The notes beneath the pieces were generated by a model, which was not told where the DNA came from, ran no database searches, and saw nothing but the letters and a program-made list of their open reading frames with translations. A stretch of 64,000 nt of DNA, taken from the IMG/VR virus record IMGVR_UViG_3300035232_000453; one strand, given 5' to 3'. The DNA comes from a virus. The translations under genes and the position numbers were made by a program. Shown in pieces: positions 1-5,507 of the stretch; position 1 is the stretch's first letter, and the number at the start of each line of letters is the position of its first letter.

Positions 1-70
1 CAGTTTTAGTTGCACCAAAACCAACTTTCTTAAATAGATAGTCTAACTTTTGATTATCGGAAATTGCCAT
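1..70 (-). CDS. 5' fragment of a probable virion structural protein (MAISDNQKLDYLFKKVGFGATKT...), runs off the window
   Basis: ATG at 70-68 overlaps the TAA of the upstream gene (TAATG coupling); frame open to the window edge. Confidence 0.7.
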   Translation of the reverse strand, partial: MAISDNQKLDYLFKKVGFGATKT

Positions 71-3000
71 TAACTAGCCTCCCCAATTGATATACTAGTT
101 ATTTCTTTTCCACTTGCTAATGCTACTCTAACCAACACAACATTATTTGTTGCGTTACTCATATTTTCACTACCTAGTGTCATTGTATAACTTGAATTGA
201 TACTGGAACCTGTTGGAACAACATCAGCACCTGTTAACGCACAACCATCTGCACCGTTACCGCCATTAGCAGTATCGCTACCCGGTATACCAGCACCTGC
301 GTACTGACTTGTACATTCAATCCATCCATTTAATCCACTAGCATTATCTACGCCAGTTCCAGGAGCTGCAATCCACATACCAGCTATTCCGTTTGAAGTA
401 ATGTTAATATCAAAATTAGCAACAACTTGTCTGCGGAAAGCAAAAGTAAAATACTGTGTTCCAGTATCTGCACTTCTGTCTGGTCCAACTGGTAAAAATC
501 CTGTTGAATAGTCTGTAGTATTATGTTCTAATGTACCCCATCTTACAGTAGCTTCTTGTGTTCCACTTACACTTACTGCACCAGTAAATGGTGTAGCAGT
601 ATAATCTGTTGAACCTGTTATAGTTGGTGTATCAGTTGTAGCATTTACAAAATCTGCAATACGCAAACCGTCTTCAGTAATTGTTCCATTACCTAAGCTA
701 TTTGCTACTGGTATATTGTCTTCTATAACACCTGTAGGATTAGCAGTATGCACCTGTACAGCGGTGTTAGTTAGTTCTGCATAGTTTGAGCTACCATTTA
801 CATTATTCGCTTTAAATTTAAGCGTTTCGACTGCTTTAACACTACTTGTAGTAATGTTAATTGTTTGGTCTGCTAATGCATATGATGAACCAAATCCAGT
901 ATTAGCATTTGGTATACCTGCTGTTAAATACGAAACTGCTTCCAGGTTTGCATATCCTTTATACTGTGTACTAATGGTTGCACCACTTGTACTTTCTGAA
1001 TTAGTACCGTTAGCAATTTCAAATACATTGTTTGTATCTCTATATGCTTGACCAATCCAGTCAGAAAGTGATGCACCACTAAGTGTGAGGGTAGGGCTTC
1101 CTGTGTTGTAGTATGGAATTCCAGATATGTATCTGTAACTACCTGCGGTGCTTTCTGTCAAAGTAGCACTTGTTAAGTCAATAGTAGGAACGCTAGTTAA
1201 GTCATCACAAATAACTGTCACGTAGTTAGTATTGCCTGTTGCATTATGCTCTATTCTTTGATCATTAACACCAGTTGAATATTCAGCAAATGGTTTAGTA
1301 ATTTTTGCATCAAATGTTTGGAAAAATCCAGTAGGATAAGTTGAAGAACTTATACTGTCATTTGCATCTCTTTGATCACTAATTACCAAGCTGTCAAAAG
1401 TACCGTTTTCATTTAAGGAAGTAGTAAACGCTTTTGAACCATCTGCTGAACCGTTAACAATTGCAGTTGCAGTACCACTTAAACCATTATATACATTTTG
1501 TGCAATGCTGGTGTCAATAGTACCGTTAGTATATCGTCTTTCGGTATTTGTTTTTAAACTTGCTCCAGCCGAGACTGGTGATGTTGCACTATTATCAGTA
1601 AAGTTATTAGCTAGTTTAGGATCAATACCCTGTGCGGAATCAGTAAGTGTAATTGTTTTTGTACTTAATCCGCCTGGTGCGTTTGGCACTGCATTAACTT
1701 GAAAAGTTAAGCTGGCCGAATCTGTTTGAGCTGTTATATCTGGAGTACCTGTTGCGGTAAAATCTAATTGATAGTTACCCGGTGTTACTCCTGTAAAGTC
1801 GTGTTGGACACTTGTTAGTCCTGCTTCATTATTATTAGCACTACCATCGTTCCAATCGTATTCATGATTGTCACCATTTTCACTTGTGTTGTTTACAGTA
1901 ACTAATGCTCTGTTTACGCCGGTATAATCTACGCCGTCATATACATCATATTGATTATCGCCGTTGCGATCTGAAACTGTATCTGCACTACCCAAGATGT
2001 TTGCTCTAACATCTGGTTCTACGTGAATTACAAAATCTATACTTTCAAAAGGACTGCTAGTATGATCGCTTAAAACTTGCAAATTACCTGTGTAGTCCAT
2101 TGCTACACTATTATCTAATAAAGTGTATTTGTGTGTTATTGTTCTAGCAGTATCTCCACTTTGATTACTGCCTACATTTACAGTTGTAATTGTACCATCG
2201 CCAAAGTCCCATAGATAACGTGTTCCGTATGTACTATAGCTTCCTATAGTTGCTTCAGTGCCATTAGTAAATGTTACTGTTAATCCGTTATTTGATTCTT
2301 CGTTAATACCTGTTGTAATGTCTGATGTTGCATCTGGTGTATGTGTGTCATAAATTTTATAACTTGCATCATCATCTAATGGAAGTAATGATGGCGTAGC
2401 TGTGCTATGACTGTCTAATGTTAGTGTAACGGTTCTTTGCACTTCTTGTTGTGTGCTAAGAGCAAATGTGTGGGCTATACGTCCTCCGCCTACGCCACCT
2501 GCTACACTATCTAAGTTAATAACATCATCTGCGGAACCATCTGCCCAATCCCATGTGTATTGAATTACTGCTCCCGATGTGTTAGTTGTTGTATTTTCAA
2601 AATAGACAGTATCGCCATCATCCCAATGTGTAATTGCGTTGCCACCAGTTGGTGCATCGTATACTACAAATGAAACGGCTGGATCGCCTGTGAAGATTGT
2701 AATATAATCTTCTCTTAATTTTTGTACTGAGCTACCAGCGCCTGTTCCTGTGTTATTAAATGCTGTAACATTTACATCAAAGGGACTACCAGTGTTGGTT
2801 GCGTATGTGTGAGTTGGAGTTGAGTCTGTTGTTGCGGTTGTTTGAGTGCCATCGCCCCAATCAATTGTATATCTGTTTGGGTCGCCAACAGTACTGATGG
2901 TTAATGTTGCAGTTAGTCCTGCTCCACCTGTTACTATATCAGAAACAAAATCTACAGACTTAACATAAGCACCTATTCTTATGTTTTCAATAATTTCTAA

Positions 3001-3213
3001 AACAGTAGCAGTATCGGCATCGCCGCCTGCATCAACATTTGATATTGCTGTTTCTAAAAATACTTTTGTTACAAGGTCTTGCGGGTCAACTGGGTCTGAT
3101 GCGTTTTTTACAATTTTAGCGGAAACATCAATATTGTTTGCCGCTCCTGCATCTAGTATTAGATCAGATTCAGATTTAATTTTATCTGCCTGATGATTTA
3201 TGTTTATAGCCAA
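70..3213 (-). CDS. Large virion structural/decoration protein with multiple PKD (Ig-like) domains
   Basis: 1047 aa, T/S/G/N-rich; PKD signatures YTIDWGDG, YTWDWADG, YLWDFGDG, YDWNDG; TTG start. Confidence 0.75.
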   Translation of the reverse strand: MAININHQADKIKSESDLILDAGAANNIDVSAKIVKNASDPVDPQDLVTKVFLETAISNVDAGGDADTATVLEIIENIRIGAYVKSVDFVSDIVTGGAGLTATLTISTVGDPNRYTIDWGDGTQTTATTDSTPTHTYATNTGSPFDVNVTAFNNTGTGAGSSVQKLREDYITIFTGDPAVSFVVYDAPTGGNAITHWDDGDTVYFENTTTNTSGAVIQYTWDWADGSADDVINLDSVAGGVGGGRIAHTFALSTQQEVQRTVTLTLDSHSTATPSLLPLDDDASYKIYDTHTPDATSDITTGINEESNNGLTVTFTNGTEATIGSYSTYGTRYLWDFGDGTITTVNVGSNQSGDTARTITHKYTLLDNSVAMDYTGNLQVLSDHTSSPFESIDFVIHVEPDVRANILGSADTVSDRNGDNQYDVYDGVDYTGVNRALVTVNNTSENGDNHEYDWNDGSANNNEAGLTSVQHDFTGVTPGNYQLDFTATGTPDITAQTDSASLTFQVNAVPNAPGGLSTKTITLTDSAQGIDPKLANNFTDNSATSPVSAGASLKTNTERRYTNGTIDTSIAQNVYNGLSGTATAIVNGSADGSKAFTTSLNENGTFDSLVISDQRDANDSISSSTYPTGFFQTFDAKITKPFAEYSTGVNDQRIEHNATGNTNYVTVICDDLTSVPTIDLTSATLTESTAGSYRYISGIPYYNTGSPTLTLSGASLSDWIGQAYRDTNNVFEIANGTNSESTSGATISTQYKGYANLEAVSYLTAGIPNANTGFGSSYALADQTINITTSSVKAVETLKFKANNVNGSSNYAELTNTAVQVHTANPTGVIEDNIPVANSLGNGTITEDGLRIADFVNATTDTPTITGSTDYTATPFTGAVSVSGTQEATVRWGTLEHNTTDYSTGFLPVGPDRSADTGTQYFTFAFRRQVVANFDINITSNGIAGMWIAAPGTGVDNASGLNGWIECTSQYAGAGIPGSDTANGGNGADGCALTGADVVPTGSSINSSYTMTLGSENMSNATNNVVLVRVALASGKEITSISIGEAS

Positions 3214-3289: not shown

Positions 3290-3898
3290 TTAATTTACGC
3301 TAGGGTTTCCATATAAGGAAAGAATAGCCCAACCAGACTCAGTAAAAATAAATTCTGCACACTGACCAATGGTTACAAATGATATGTCTGTTCCATTTAA
3401 GAACGTGTCTGGTGTGACAACAATTGTACTACTTGGAGTATCAGTTACTACTAAAATTTTTCTTTCACCTTCAATGCCATCTGCTAATGTTAGTGCAGTG
3501 CTAGTTGATGCATTTAGATAAACTGTGCCAGATGTTGATAAGGATACAGAGTTTGTAGCTGATGTTTTAACTGATACTACTTTTTGTAAAAATGCAATAT
3601 CCCAAGGACTACTATTTGTTCCTAGATCATATTGTATTCCAGAATCAGTATTTGGTACAACATTACTGTTTACGTTTGCATTCAGCGTTAATGATCCTCC
3701 TGCGTTTCCTAATGATATAACGTTTCCGTTTACAACAAGAGTACCGCCGACATATAAATTGTCTAATATGCCTGCTCCGCCTCTTACGCAAAGAGCAGAT
3801 GTTGTTGATGCTAAATTCAAATCAGCAGCATTAACGTCTAATACGTTAGTGCTTTCTATTACTAGTGTTCCAGAATCTGGGTTAATGTGTGATGACAT
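3290..3898 (-). CDS. Virion structural protein (fibre/appendage-like)
   Basis: 202 aa beta-rich (VRGGAGILDNLYVGG, YDLGTNSSPW, LTLADGIEGERK); GATAAATA motif upstream. Confidence 0.6.
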   Translation of the reverse strand: MSSHINPDSGTLVIESTNVLDVNAADLNLASTTSALCVRGGAGILDNLYVGGTLVVNGNVISLGNAGGSLTLNANVNSNVVPNTDSGIQYDLGTNSSPWDIAFLQKVVSVKTSATNSVSLSTSGTVYLNASTSTALTLADGIEGERKILVVTDTPSSTIVVTPDTFLNGTDISFVTIGQCAEFIFTESGWAILSLYGNPSVN

Positions 3899-3935
3899 AA
3901 TACTTTCTTCCTACTACTTCCTTTTATTATATATG

Positions 3936-3943
3936 TATTTATC
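3936..3943 (-). promoter_or_regulatory. T4-type late promoter (GATAAATA)
   Basis: 7/8 match to TATAAATA upstream of a structural gene; motif recurs in most intergenic gaps. Confidence 0.6.
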
Positions 3944-3971
3944 AAAGACAAACCTTTTTGGCTGCTCAAAG

Positions 3972-3995
3972 AAAAAGACGCCAAAGCGTCTTTTT
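3972..3995 (-). terminator. Intrinsic terminator (possibly bidirectional)
   Basis: AAAAAGACGC-caaa-GCGTCTTTTT inverted repeat with T-runs on both strands. Confidence 0.75.
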
Positions 3996-4214
3996 AGAAT
4001 AAGCAAAATAGGTAGGATTCGGTTATACCTACAACCCCATAACACAGATACCATCTGAAATAAGGGAGCCAAGTTCCGCTTAGTATTGCGATGTGACACA
4101 GCGTATTTCTACTACCACGCCTGGGTACTACCCCTAACTTGCCAAGTTCGACCCTCTGGTAAAGGCCTCTTCCTTGCACTATAAACATTGAGCCGCTAAA
4201 CTCTTTGTTGCTAT
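3972..4214 (-). ncRNA. Candidate ~245-nt structured non-coding RNA, family unassigned
   Basis: Own sigma70-type promoter and terminator, GC higher than flanks, many hairpins, 5'/3' closing stem, no credible RBS-led ORF. Confidence 0.65.
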
Positions 4215-4220
4215 GTACTT

Positions 4221-4249
4221 AATATACAACATATTTGTACAAAGGTCAA
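4221..4249 (-). promoter_or_regulatory. sigma70-type promoter TTGACC-N17-TATATT
   Basis: -35 at 4249-4244, -10 at 4226-4221, 17-nt spacer, just downstream of the capsid-gene terminator. Confidence 0.7.
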
Positions 4250-4290
4250 CCTTTATTTAATAAAAAATTAATCTTTTTTAAAAATAAGCC

Positions 4291-4321
4291 AAAAAAATAG
4301 GCCCAATAAAGGGCCTATTTT
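4291..4321 (-). terminator. Intrinsic terminator of the major capsid gene
   Basis: AAAATAGGCCC-aataaa-GGGCCTATTTT; T7 run on the minus strand; begins ~20 nt after the gp23 stop. Confidence 0.85.
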
Positions 4322-4343: not shown

Positions 4344-5507
4344 TTATGAGAACTTAAGGTTACCTGATGCAACGTCAATTTTCGCTAAGTAGTCAGCTGC
4401 ATTACCAAGAGATGAAGCTTGGTTGTTTAGCTCAACATAGCCATAACGTGTCATAAATGATACTGTTGGCTCGAAAGTTGATGGATCAAGTACTGTGCCT
4501 GAAGACATTAATGGAATGTATGGGCAATAGAATGCTGCCGCATCAATTTCACCGTCGCCTTTATAGCCAACTAGTACTGGAGCATTATCTGCCGCGTACT
4601 GGTCAACGAAAACACGCATAGTATTATTCAAAGTACCAACAAATTTAGTGTTAGTTGGAGCTTCAAATGGACCTTCAGTTGTTCTTGCAAACGCTGAAGT
4701 TGTCGCACTTTGTAGTACTGTTAACATTGTTGGTGAAACAACAACGTAGTTACCTGCGCCACGACGTGTACGTGTAGCGATTAGGTTTGCAGATCTGTTA
4801 ATAAGAACCGCTAGTGCAGCATGCTCGTCACCGACGAAAGTTGCTTGTCCTGAAACAGCGCCTTGGTCGTATGTGTCTGCAGCTGTACCTGCTAATGTAC
4901 GTAGTGAAGTTAAAACTTCTTGATCGATTTCAGCAGTAATTTCTTGTGCAAGTGCTTGCATGATTTCTGCTTCAACGTCTAGACCGTGCATTGAATTAGC
5001 ATCTTGTGCCGCTTCAAAAGTCCAACGTGCTGATAGTTTACGTGTTTTAGCTTCAACAGTTTGTTTCAATACTTGGATTGAAAGTTTACGACCTGCTTCT
5101 GCTTCTAAAGAAGAAGTTGAAGTCGCTTTACCTGTTGCTGCGTCACCTGAGTAACCTTTTGCAATTGCAAATGGGCTTAGTGCTTCGTCGCCTGCTGTTG
5201 CAGTTGCGGCTGTTTCACCATATCTTACTCTTAGTGTGTGAATTTGTCCTACTGGACCTGTCATAGGTTGTACACCTACTAGTTCGTTCGCGATAACTGT
5301 TGGCATTACACGACGAATAACTGGAAGAATCACTTTGTTAAGTGATGCAACGTTACCTGCCATTGTTGTACCAGCTGCGGCTGATTCTGAAAGATAGCTC
5401 TTAGTGTTTTCTAGAACTGACTCCATAACAACCTTTTTGTTACCTGATAAACCATCTGTTAGTGCGTCTTTAGTTACGCCCCAATTTTCAAATAGATTCT
5501 GTGTCAT
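4344..5507 (-). CDS. gp23: T4-like major capsid protein
   Basis: IRRVMPTVIANELVGVQPMTGP, VEAKTRKLSARWT, EITAEID, AFYCPYIPL, FMTRYG; AGGAG RBS. Confidence 0.95.
   Translation of the reverse strand: MTQNLFENWGVTKDALTDGLSGNKKVVMESVLENTKSYLSESAAAGTTMAGNVASLNKVILPVIRRVMPTVIANELVGVQPMTGPVGQIHTLRVRYGETAATATAGDEALSPFAIAKGYSGDAATGKATSTSSLEAEAGRKLSIQVLKQTVEAKTRKLSARWTFEAAQDANSMHGLDVEAEIMQALAQEITAEIDQEVLTSLRTLAGTAADTYDQGAVSGQATFVGDEHAALAVLINRSANLIATRTRRGAGNYVVVSPTMLTVLQSATTSAFARTTEGPFEAPTNTKFVGTLNNTMRVFVDQYAADNAPVLVGYKGDGEIDAAAFYCPYIPLMSSGTVLDPSTFEPTVSFMTRYGYVELNNQASSLGNAADYLAKIDVASGNLKFS

Follow-up and report, generated by a model that had tools for sequence, protein, structure and literature searches.

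The 64,000-nt stretch of DNA analyzed here (IMG/VR record IMGVR_UViG_3300035232_000453; in the following referred to as the window) belongs to an uncultured marine giant phage, and directly behind the major capsid gene, on the minus strand, it carries an element that is almost certainly no new class of RNA but belongs, as a divergent member with a score below threshold, to the manA RNA family. On balance, this locus is best read as a separate transcription unit for a manA RNA, which probably self-assembles. The family was described in 2010, with a location in 5' untranslated regions and a likely role in cis-regulation, possibly as a riboswitch (Weinberg et al. 2010, PMC2864571; Rfam). Three aspects go beyond the literature consulted, namely a covarying helix that pairs the two ends of the RNA and that is termed P0 here, a layout of promoter, RNA and terminator without an expression platform, and the covariation of loops that make intermolecular contacts.

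The assignment to the family is based on a full-length match to the Rfam model RF01745 (4002 to 4200, minus strand, model positions 1-192 of 192, 50.2 bits), which has an E-value of 6e-12 in a 551-nt search and of 7e-10 in a search of the whole window. The gathering score of this model is 55.2 bits, which is an operational cut-off and not a biological feature; the window copy scores below it, and the match surfaces only under relaxed E-value thresholds. The connection to accepted manA members is made by an intermediate, as a BLASTN search of 50,697 phage records yields one relative (E 4e-27), which belongs to Pelagibacter phage Mosig and is 73% identical over 229 nt, and the Mosig element passes the Rfam cut-off with 64.0 bits. 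The original prediction, which was made from the sequence without database searches, had described an ornate phage non-coding RNA of unknown function that is expressed from a host-type promoter within a late region. The structured, non-coding nature, the host-type promoter, the own terminator and the location in a late structural region hold true, but the RNA does have a family, and as the prediction itself had stated that a strong Rfam hit would remove the novelty, most of the novelty is indeed gone with the full-length match in the permissive scan. The statement that hallmarks of tRNA and tmRNA are lacking was correct: ARAGORN detects no tRNA or tmRNA genes in the window, and no Rfam family reaches its gathering score in the 64 kb. 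Apart from manA, E falls below 0.1 only once in the region, for a match to csRNA that is at the level of chance (E 0.0096, 34 bits vs. a cut-off of 57), lies on the opposite strand and spans promoter and terminator. There is no Rfam match at window positions 15666-16802 in the whole-window scan (E <= 0.01), and no manA match in G001 (36.6 kb), the record nearest to the window.

Window and Mosig have a 17-mer, TAGTGCAAGGAAGAGGC, in common, and this signature sequence is present in at least 120 IMG/VR contigs, from which 81 distinct loci with full flanks were extracted (single loci are given L numbers below). The 68 distinct RNAs were aligned with MAFFT (alignment A1), a covariance model (CM) termed R1 was built from the subfamily, and a CM-based realignment gave alignment A2. 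R1 detects exactly one copy per locus, with 172-232 bits for full-length copies; the window has 207 bits over 3997-4217, Mosig 209 bits, and the 96 other matches are also high. Against RF01745, the same subfamily reaches 40-62 bits, and only 4 of 13 matches attain the gathering score (L009, L004, L061 and L016 with 57.5-61.9 bits, nine others with 40.4-53.8 bits). As these scores straddle the cut-off, routine Rfam annotation misses most copies, including that of the window. The copy of Prochlorococcus phage P-SSM2 was undetected by R1 at E <= 1 with default filters. The same fold is kept from cyanophages to Photobacterium.

It had been proposed to collect homologs and to analyze them for covariation, and this analysis supports the helices. 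In A1, 84.5% of the cells in the manA helices and P0 are paired, vs. 37-49% if the 3' partners are slid by 1-3 columns; in A2, 88.1% are paired, with slid controls at 35-50% across both alignments. The covariation score of A1 is 0.326, vs. at most 0.124 in slid controls, and in none of 500 shuffles was this score, the paired fraction or either tally of two-sided changes as high as observed. The number of further pair types is unexceptional (reached by 185 of 500 shuffles in A1). RNAalifold, blind to the manual structure, predicted 50 pairs, 33 of them with compensatory changes, and thereby recovered P0, P1, P3, P4, P5, P6, P8 and P9, not P2 or P7. The helix order of manA, which is P1, P2, P3a/b, a four-way junction of P4-P5-P6-P7, P8 and P9, is found with covariation. 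The structural support comes from covariation; the thermodynamic stability is unremarkable: in terms of single-sequence folding energy, the RNA is no more stable than shuffles (z = -0.58). Helices are numbered here as in the supplement of a preprint on manA structures solved by cryo-electron microscopy (cryo-EM) (10.64898/2026.07.01.735769), and the parts of the RNA unit are the following:

4221-4249, minus strand: sigma-70-type promoter TTGACC-N17-TATATT, 10/12 consensus matches
3999-4214, minus strand: RNA body of 216 nt, from the P0 5' strand through the P0 3' strand
4208-4214, minus strand: P0 5' strand AUAGCAA, pairs with 3999-4006
3999-4006, minus strand: P0 3' strand UUGCUUAU, one U bulged in the window copy, pairs with 4208-4214
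4186-4207, minus strand: P1 hairpin with GAGUU-UAGC-GGCUC core, by manA match and RNAalifold
4123-4134, minus strand: P5 with loop L5 GUAGUA (4131-4126), P5 100% paired
4095-4121, minus strand: P6 with GAAA tetraloop (4109-4106), 92.6% paired, 7 of 10 pairs covary
4076-4091, minus strand: P7 with loop L7 AAUACUAA (4087-4080), 100% paired, 3 of 4 pairs covary
4035-4066, minus strand: P8 with outer CCCU/GGGG (by RNAalifold), inner CAGAU/AUCUG (by the alignments) and loop L8 UGGUA (4053-4049)
4012-4032, minus strand: P9 hairpin, GUAGG / 11-nt loop / CCUAC, 100% paired, 2 pairs covary
3972-3995, minus strand: intrinsic terminator of the RNA unit, hairpin AAAAAGACGC-UUUG-GCGUCUUUUU, 8-bp core with -10.1 kcal/mol

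P0 lies outside the Rfam model and is missing from the cryo-EM constructs, and RNAalifold found it independently. The pairing of the 5' end AUAGCAA with UUGCUUAU at the 3' end, as originally suggested, is real: 87-88% of the cells are paired (86.9% in A1), and five of the eight pairs have changed on both sides (CG to UA, AU to UA), with variants such as AAGCA/UGCUU to AAGUA/UACUU, AUAGUA/UACUAU and AAUGC/GCAUU. Of the internal hairpins that had been pointed out, GAGUU/GGCUC (P1), GGCCUU/AGGGUC (P3b, 98.5% paired in A1), GGG/CCC (P5) and CAGAU/AUCUG (inner P8) match manA helices and covary. In the RNAalifold register, all four pairs of outer P8 covary as well; the MAFFT alignment had misaligned this part (33% of cells paired) and P1 (66%), and the CM realignment reached 73% for P8. 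Other suggestions had to be modified. The stem GGCGU/ACGCU around GUA-GAAA-UAC is correct at its tip, which is the covarying P6, and the register of lower P6 differs. The element that had been compared to a tRNA T-arm is a real hairpin, and it is P9 of manA, a 5-bp stem with an 11-nt loop in agreement with the manA consensus GugGGUAuacAguAAUCCcaC. The local hairpin AACUU/AAGUU does not form part of the fold, as CAAGUU (4141-4136) instead pairs with the distal AACUUG (4075-4070) to form P4, which is 99.5% paired and has changed on both sides in five of six pairs. The sequence GAACUUGGC does occur twice (4149-4141 and 4076-4068), and this repeat is not kept in homologs and hence incidental. A switch between the AACUU/AAGUU hairpin and the duplicated GAACUUGGC was also considered and rejected, since the 5' copy is not kept complementary in homologs and P4 covaries; the Mosig counterpart has AACUUG beside CAACUU.

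manA RNAs have complementary L5 and L7 loops, and in the window copy UAGUA of L5 (in 4131-4126) can form 5 bp with UACUA of L7 (in 4087-4080). The subfamily consensus is UGGUA/UACCG, and the window combination thus represents a compensatory change; other clades have UUGUC/GACAG, UUGU/ACAA or GUGG/UCAC. The 18 observed combinations of L5 and L7 have a mean duplex energy of -2.5 kcal/mol vs. -0.8 for the 108 unobserved ones, and only one of 5000 permutations is as good. L8 and L9 are complementary in the window (UGGU/ACCG), in relatives up to AUGGAAU/AUUCCAU, and this covariation is weaker than that of L5 and L7 (166 of 5000 permutations as good). L1 contains a perfect palindrome in 56 of the 68 homologs (UAAUUA, UAGCUA, UUAUAA or AAUUAAUU), and exchanges among UAAUUA, UAGCUA and UUAUAA involve paired substitutions that leave it symmetric, which a loop contact between two copies would require.

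Such contacts are known from structures. Five manA RNAs analyzed by cryo-EM form a 60-mer T=1 icosahedral cage, decamers, or an octamer/decamer mixture, with manA_A0F1 being the 60-mer cage and 67AA, pho_A28C and pho34_A767 being decamers, and all of these assemblies are built from pentamers via intermolecular kissing loops (10.64898/2026.07.01.735769). L5-L7' contacts are intermolecular in four of these RNAs, L8-L9' and L1-L1' contacts were seen in the 60-mer cage, and Photobacterium manA RNAs use L3-L8' together with an L6 GNRA-receptor contact (10.64898/2026.07.01.735769). Complementarity of L5-L7 and L8-L9 is common to the cryo-EM RNAs and the subfamily of the window, and the relatives of the window copy mostly have the palindromic L1. 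By analogy, L5-L7 (UAGUA/UACUA) and L8-L9 (UGGU/ACCG) of the window RNA may join copies head to tail, which would result in closed, pentamer-based oligomers. Whether this takes place in the infected cell is a separate matter, and we regard oligomerization in vivo as a serious possibility that falls somewhat short of being probable.

As to transcription, all signals that had been named for the minus strand are present, i.e. the capsid terminator, the TTGACC-17-TATATT promoter, the multi-helix RNA and its own terminator. The gap between the capsid gene and a 202-aa open reading frame (ORF) comprises 445 nt, and its features follow each other in the order capsid terminator, promoter, RNA, terminator hairpin, TGATAAATAC and a purine-rich ribosome-binding region, with the RNA being a GC-richer stretch of about 216 nt between promoter and terminator hairpin. 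The transcription start is predicted near 4214. The window terminator starts 3-5 nt past P0, depending on the extent of the A-U stem that is counted; the hairpin 3995-3972 is absent from the list of the consensus terminator scanner, probably since its U-run forms part of the maximal stem. The surroundings of the RNA unit are as follows:

4344-5507, minus strand: major capsid gene of gp23 type (Pfam Gp23, E 2.4e-100), directly upstream of the RNA unit
4294-4321, minus strand: capsid-gene terminator of the intrinsic type, with an 11-bp stem and then a T-run
3935-3944, minus strand: TGATAAATAC (exact match), similar to the T4-type late promoter TATAAATA, 37 nt 5' of the next ATG
3290-3898, minus strand: next gene, 202 aa, an ORF call without Pfam or PHROG match
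70-3213 of the window: second gene past the RNA, coding for a 1047-aa protein (phrog_8578) that has PKD domains

In our reading, the capsid terminator insulates the RNA unit from late transcription, and host RNA polymerase would generate a discrete transcript of about 225-245 nt from the sigma-70-type promoter. This arrangement is not a peculiarity of the window. A promoter TTGnnn-N16-18-TAnnnT is present at all 81 distinct loci, and the distance from the end of the -10 box to the conserved 17-mer is 37-41 nt in 80 of them and 33 nt in one. What follows the RNA differs between a window-like group a (60 loci) and a Mosig-like group b (21 loci). In group a, a terminator with a mean of -12.4 kcal/mol starts within 30 nt of P0 in 51 of 60 loci, seven more loci have one within 150 nt, and two have none. 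In group b, none of the 21 loci has a terminator, a start codon follows the end of the RNA at a distance of 11-106 nt, and P0 is often directly followed by a perfect TATAAATA; the downstream genes encode gp32 (14 loci), rubrerythrin (three) or peroxiredoxin (two). The promoter-RNA-terminator layout without an expression platform argues that the RNA itself is the product in the clade of the window, and a free-standing transcript at the window locus is likely. The RNA would then be an end product and not a leader that controls the 202-aa gene.

What alternatives exist for such a free-standing RNA? It could in principle be a cis-acting riboswitch or leader, with the manA fold sensing a metabolite or protein and the terminator at 3995-3972 serving as a platform that sets early read-through into the 202-aa gene. 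This would agree with the classification of manA as likely cis-regulator by Rfam and by Weinberg et al. 2010 (PMC2864571), and the next gene is indeed co-directional at most loci. A riboswitch platform would have to compete with the sensing fold, and this is not what was found when 52 group-a transcripts were folded. The terminator begins 1-8 nt (median 6) past P0, never overlaps with the fold, and is part of the unconstrained minimum-energy structure in 52 of 52 cases. If its 3' arm is kept from pairing, the mean cost is 12.8 kcal/mol, close to the 12.3 kcal/mol of the terminator itself, and other pairings of the released 5' arm make up for a mean of only 1.7 kcal/mol. No competing antiterminator, and no alternative pairing of comparable stability, was seen in these 52 transcripts, and terminator sequences vary widely among loci without any matching change in the RNA. 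Likewise, there is no consistent class of controlled genes: the downstream ORFs make up over 15 clusters that are unrelated to each other and have no function in common, and homologs of the 202-aa protein follow the RNA at only 3 of 81 loci (cluster 11). In at least five loci (L016, L062, L096, L095 and L101), the nearest long downstream ORF is on the opposite strand, and the RNA therefore cannot be the leader of that ORF. There is also no known ligand of manA.

The position before the gene also differs from that of a usual leader. The typing of manA as cis-regulatory is based on a location in the 5' untranslated region directly before a gene, and in the window a terminator, a spacer of 74 nt and a late-promoter-like motif lie between the RNA and the next ATG. 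TATAAATA is the consensus of T4 late promoters, and an ATAAATA between terminator and next gene is found in the window and many related loci, which speaks against a leader, and by analogy the 202-aa gene appears to have its own late-type promoter. As the GATAAATAC motif is not enriched across the whole window, its late-promoter role is deduced from its position and from knowledge of T4 only. Taken as an explanation of the window locus, a leader function is thus unlikely.

Several points nevertheless weigh against a separately transcribed, self-assembling RNA, and some of them directly speak for a leader. The RNAs of group b, including Mosig, and of P-SSM2 have no terminator and are found directly before start codons, 11-106 nt upstream of gp32, rubrerythrin, peroxiredoxin or purS/L. 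This start-codon-abutting layout fits a leader role, and in some contexts at least, the family may therefore act in cis. The stretch was detected in seawater metatranscriptome libraries of several studies, with X1 holding 95% of the sampled words, and contigs bridge the terminator in all four seawater RNA libraries (X1 record 1, X2 record 10, X4 record 18, X7 record 25), which may be due to read-through or to DNA in the libraries. The four RNA runs are assembled contigs, from which starts, ends, strand and level cannot be read and in which uncovered parts are uninformative; we therefore infer the transcript boundaries. In X1, the depth of the RNA core is above that of the flanks, with contig depths summing over relatives. 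With respect to self-assembly, L1 of the window is a UAGC tetraloop and no palindrome, none of the cryo-EM RNAs belongs to the subfamily of the window, as none has the signature sequence, and the cryo-EM assemblies formed in vitro at high RNA concentration (10.64898/2026.07.01.735769). From the alignments one cannot tell whether loops covary for intermolecular contacts, as the covariation would fit an intramolecular pseudoknot equally well. Finally, the family assignment itself has to cope with a window score below the Rfam gathering threshold.

A second alternative is that the unit is a stabilizing or insulating mobile cassette that protects transcripts or marks recombination points, with the RNA product itself being functionless. 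The unit of promoter, RNA and terminator does occur in many gene contexts, P0 sequesters the 5' end of the RNA, and directly past the RNA terminator lie TTGAC-like -35 sequences, which many loci have as CTTGAC and the window as AAAGGTTTGTC; positions 3945-3971 of the window hold AAAAAGGTTTGTCTTTG, which is similar to AAAGGTTGACCTTTG of the promoter region (4236-4262). T4-type phages have promoter-early-stem-loop cassettes, and a cassette that is bounded by terminator-plus-promoter-like repeats would be reminiscent of these. About 200 nt of covarying structure with loop complementarity far exceed what a stabilizer or insulator needs, and the conservation of the fold from cyanophages to Photobacterium also argues against this explanation, which is very unlikely. 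Even less probable is that the RNA needs further processing before it acts, such as a joining of its paired ends into a circle; P0 does bring the 5' and 3' ends together, but no end joints were found in the four RNA runs, although contigs rarely show such joints. That the locus encodes a 64-aa protein (ORF 4188-3994) can practically be dismissed, because the open frame that starts with ATG in the window is not conserved (of 68 homologs, 16 have the ATG and 7 an open frame), matches nothing in Pfam or PHROG, and accumulates substitutions that track base-pairing and not codons; codon conservation of this frame had been named as a point that would speak against an RNA gene.

The genomic neighborhood is in line with a mobile unit. 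In group a, the upstream gene is the capsid gene at 30 of 60 loci and an AdoMet-decarboxylase-like ORF at 13. Downstream ORFs include an E1_FCCH-domain protein, a TonB-dependent receptor, a PKD protein, a 139-aa protein without known family, and a cytidylyltransferase/mannose-6-P isomerase, which is an echo of the name of the motif. The 1047-aa PKD protein of the window is probably a fiber or adhesin, and a homolog of it follows the RNA in L051 and L120. The nearest cultured relatives of the window capsid (67-70% amino acid identity) are those of giant phages, namely Sinorhizobium phage Phosso (469 kb), Vibrio phage 2.275.O (349 kb) and Pseudomonas phage PA5oct (287 kb). In all three, the gap behind the capsid gene is only about 100-120 nt, and R1 and RF01745 have no match anywhere in these genomes. 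With the cultured capsid relatives lacking the RNA, the unit looks like an inserted cassette. The kin of the window capsid are neither pelagimyophages nor cyanophages, though the nearest relative of the RNA is in the pelagimyophage Mosig, and the RNA cassette thus seems to move between phage lineages.

In our scan of genome contigs for the 17-mer, 18 matches were obtained, of which only those in two contigs of one metagenome-assembled genome (MAG) are real; the others look like chance. These two contigs (153 kb and 335 kb) belong to a Red Sea 'Neomarinimicrobiota' MAG, have the RNA at L145 5644-5866 and L146 6874-7096 with 219.7 bits, and encode capsids (L148, L149) that are 78% identical to that of the window. 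Both appear to stem from giant phages and to have ended up in a bacterial bin, which might give a hint to the host. A viral contig with a Mosig-type manA RNA also has a match to a permuted alphaproteobacterial tmRNA (L063 4347-4594; RF04321 102 bits, RF01849 89 bits); the tmRNA is carried by the phage, or the sequence is a piece of the host, and it fits a SAR11-type host for that clade.

Other structured RNAs were observed next to the subfamily. In six contigs, a glutamine riboswitch aptamer (RF01739, 45-58 bits, cut-off 35) lies about 150-280 nt upstream of the manA-like RNA, and in L009 it is placed between the capsid gene and the RNA promoter; the whole-window Rfam scan finds no such aptamer in the window. 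Six loci, five of them shared with the former, have the 'freshwater-2' motif (RF02980) on the downstream side, at a distance from the manA-like RNA that varies between loci from about 60 to about 500 nt, with 66-77 bits and thus above the cut-off in five loci and with 46.6 bits and thus below it in L076. At some loci, for instance L045 and L076, RF02980 is preceded by a GATAAATAC motif and lies at the head of an ORF of about 150 aa whose product has an E1_FCCH-like domain. The positions are:

L004: RF01739 aptamer 2812-2861, RF02980 motif 1882-1970
L009: RF01739 aptamer 1573-1622
L017: RF02980 motif 954-1040
L045: RF01739 aptamer 2831-2878, RF02980 motif 3324-3406
L059: RF01739 aptamer 1828-1875, RF02980 motif 852-934
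L076: RF01739 aptamer 2909-2956, RF02980 motif 3486-3559
L078: RF01739 aptamer 2182-2230, RF02980 motif 1254-1339

Together with these RNAs, the post-capsid region represents an island of up to three structured RNAs.

How does the window RNA compare with systems that are already known? Like the window copy, the manA RNA of P-SSM2 (AY939844, 142837-143034) has the P1-P9 order with the P4-P7 four-way junction, a GNRA-type L6, the P9 hairpin and complementary L5 and L7 loops, it also occurs in a marine T4-type phage, and a sigma-70-type promoter (TTGACA-17-TATAAT in P-SSM2) lies immediately upstream. In contrast, the RF01745 score is 181.6 bits in P-SSM2 vs. 50.2 in the window, P2 is AUAG/CUAU in the window vs. 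GGGAG/CUCCC in classic manA, and the window differs by its covarying P0, its own strong terminator and the late-promoter-like element, whereas the P-SSM2 RNA abuts a start codon. The RNA of Mosig (EXVC030M; MT647606, 108164-108371; this region is unannotated in the GenBank record) agrees with the window in promoter spacing, P0 and loop complementarity (GGUA/UACC), but it has no terminator, ends 22 nt before the rubrerythrin start codon, and lies in a region of replication genes (gp59-like, gp32), whereas the window RNA follows the capsid gene. From the cryo-EM RNAs, the window copy differs in that the constructs lack P0 and the window copy lacks the L1 palindrome. ROOL, GOLLD and OLE are free-standing, ornate RNAs associated with phages and prophages that, according to cryo-EM reports of 2024-2025, self-assemble into closed particles by loop-loop contacts; with 500-800 nt, they are unrelated in sequence and fold to the manA RNAs of about 200 nt. 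The preprint treats manA as a putative cis-regulatory element of 5' untranslated regions and does not discuss free-standing genes (10.64898/2026.07.01.735769).

If the favored separately transcribed RNA does assemble, one can only guess that the assembly acts as a scaffold or sequesters a host factor or small molecule. In its most far-reaching form, manA would be no regulator at all in the large marine phage group concerned but a free-standing gene for a self-assembling RNA particle, transcribed by the host polymerase from a cassette that usually resides beside the capsid gene, and this particle would enclose, scaffold or sequester something during infection; the contacts of such a particle would be the covarying L5-L7 and L8-L9 pairs, complemented by the palindromic L1-L1' in most relatives. 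We put this forward tentatively and consider it rather doubtful. Catalogues have listed manA as a probable riboswitch since 2010, and the 2026 preprint described cages in vitro without a biological context. The subfamily described here is widespread, with at least 120 contigs, and mostly missed by standard Rfam annotation. The own promoter, the paired ends, the own terminator that most window-like loci possess, and the covarying contact loops are genomic evidence that the RNA is selected, and that its assembly probably is as well. A tractable system exists in the cultured pair of Mosig and Pelagibacter HTCC1062, which carries the leader-type form, and if the locus of the window is indeed a gene for an RNA particle, it would be the first biological setting for an RNA cage that has been seen in vitro.

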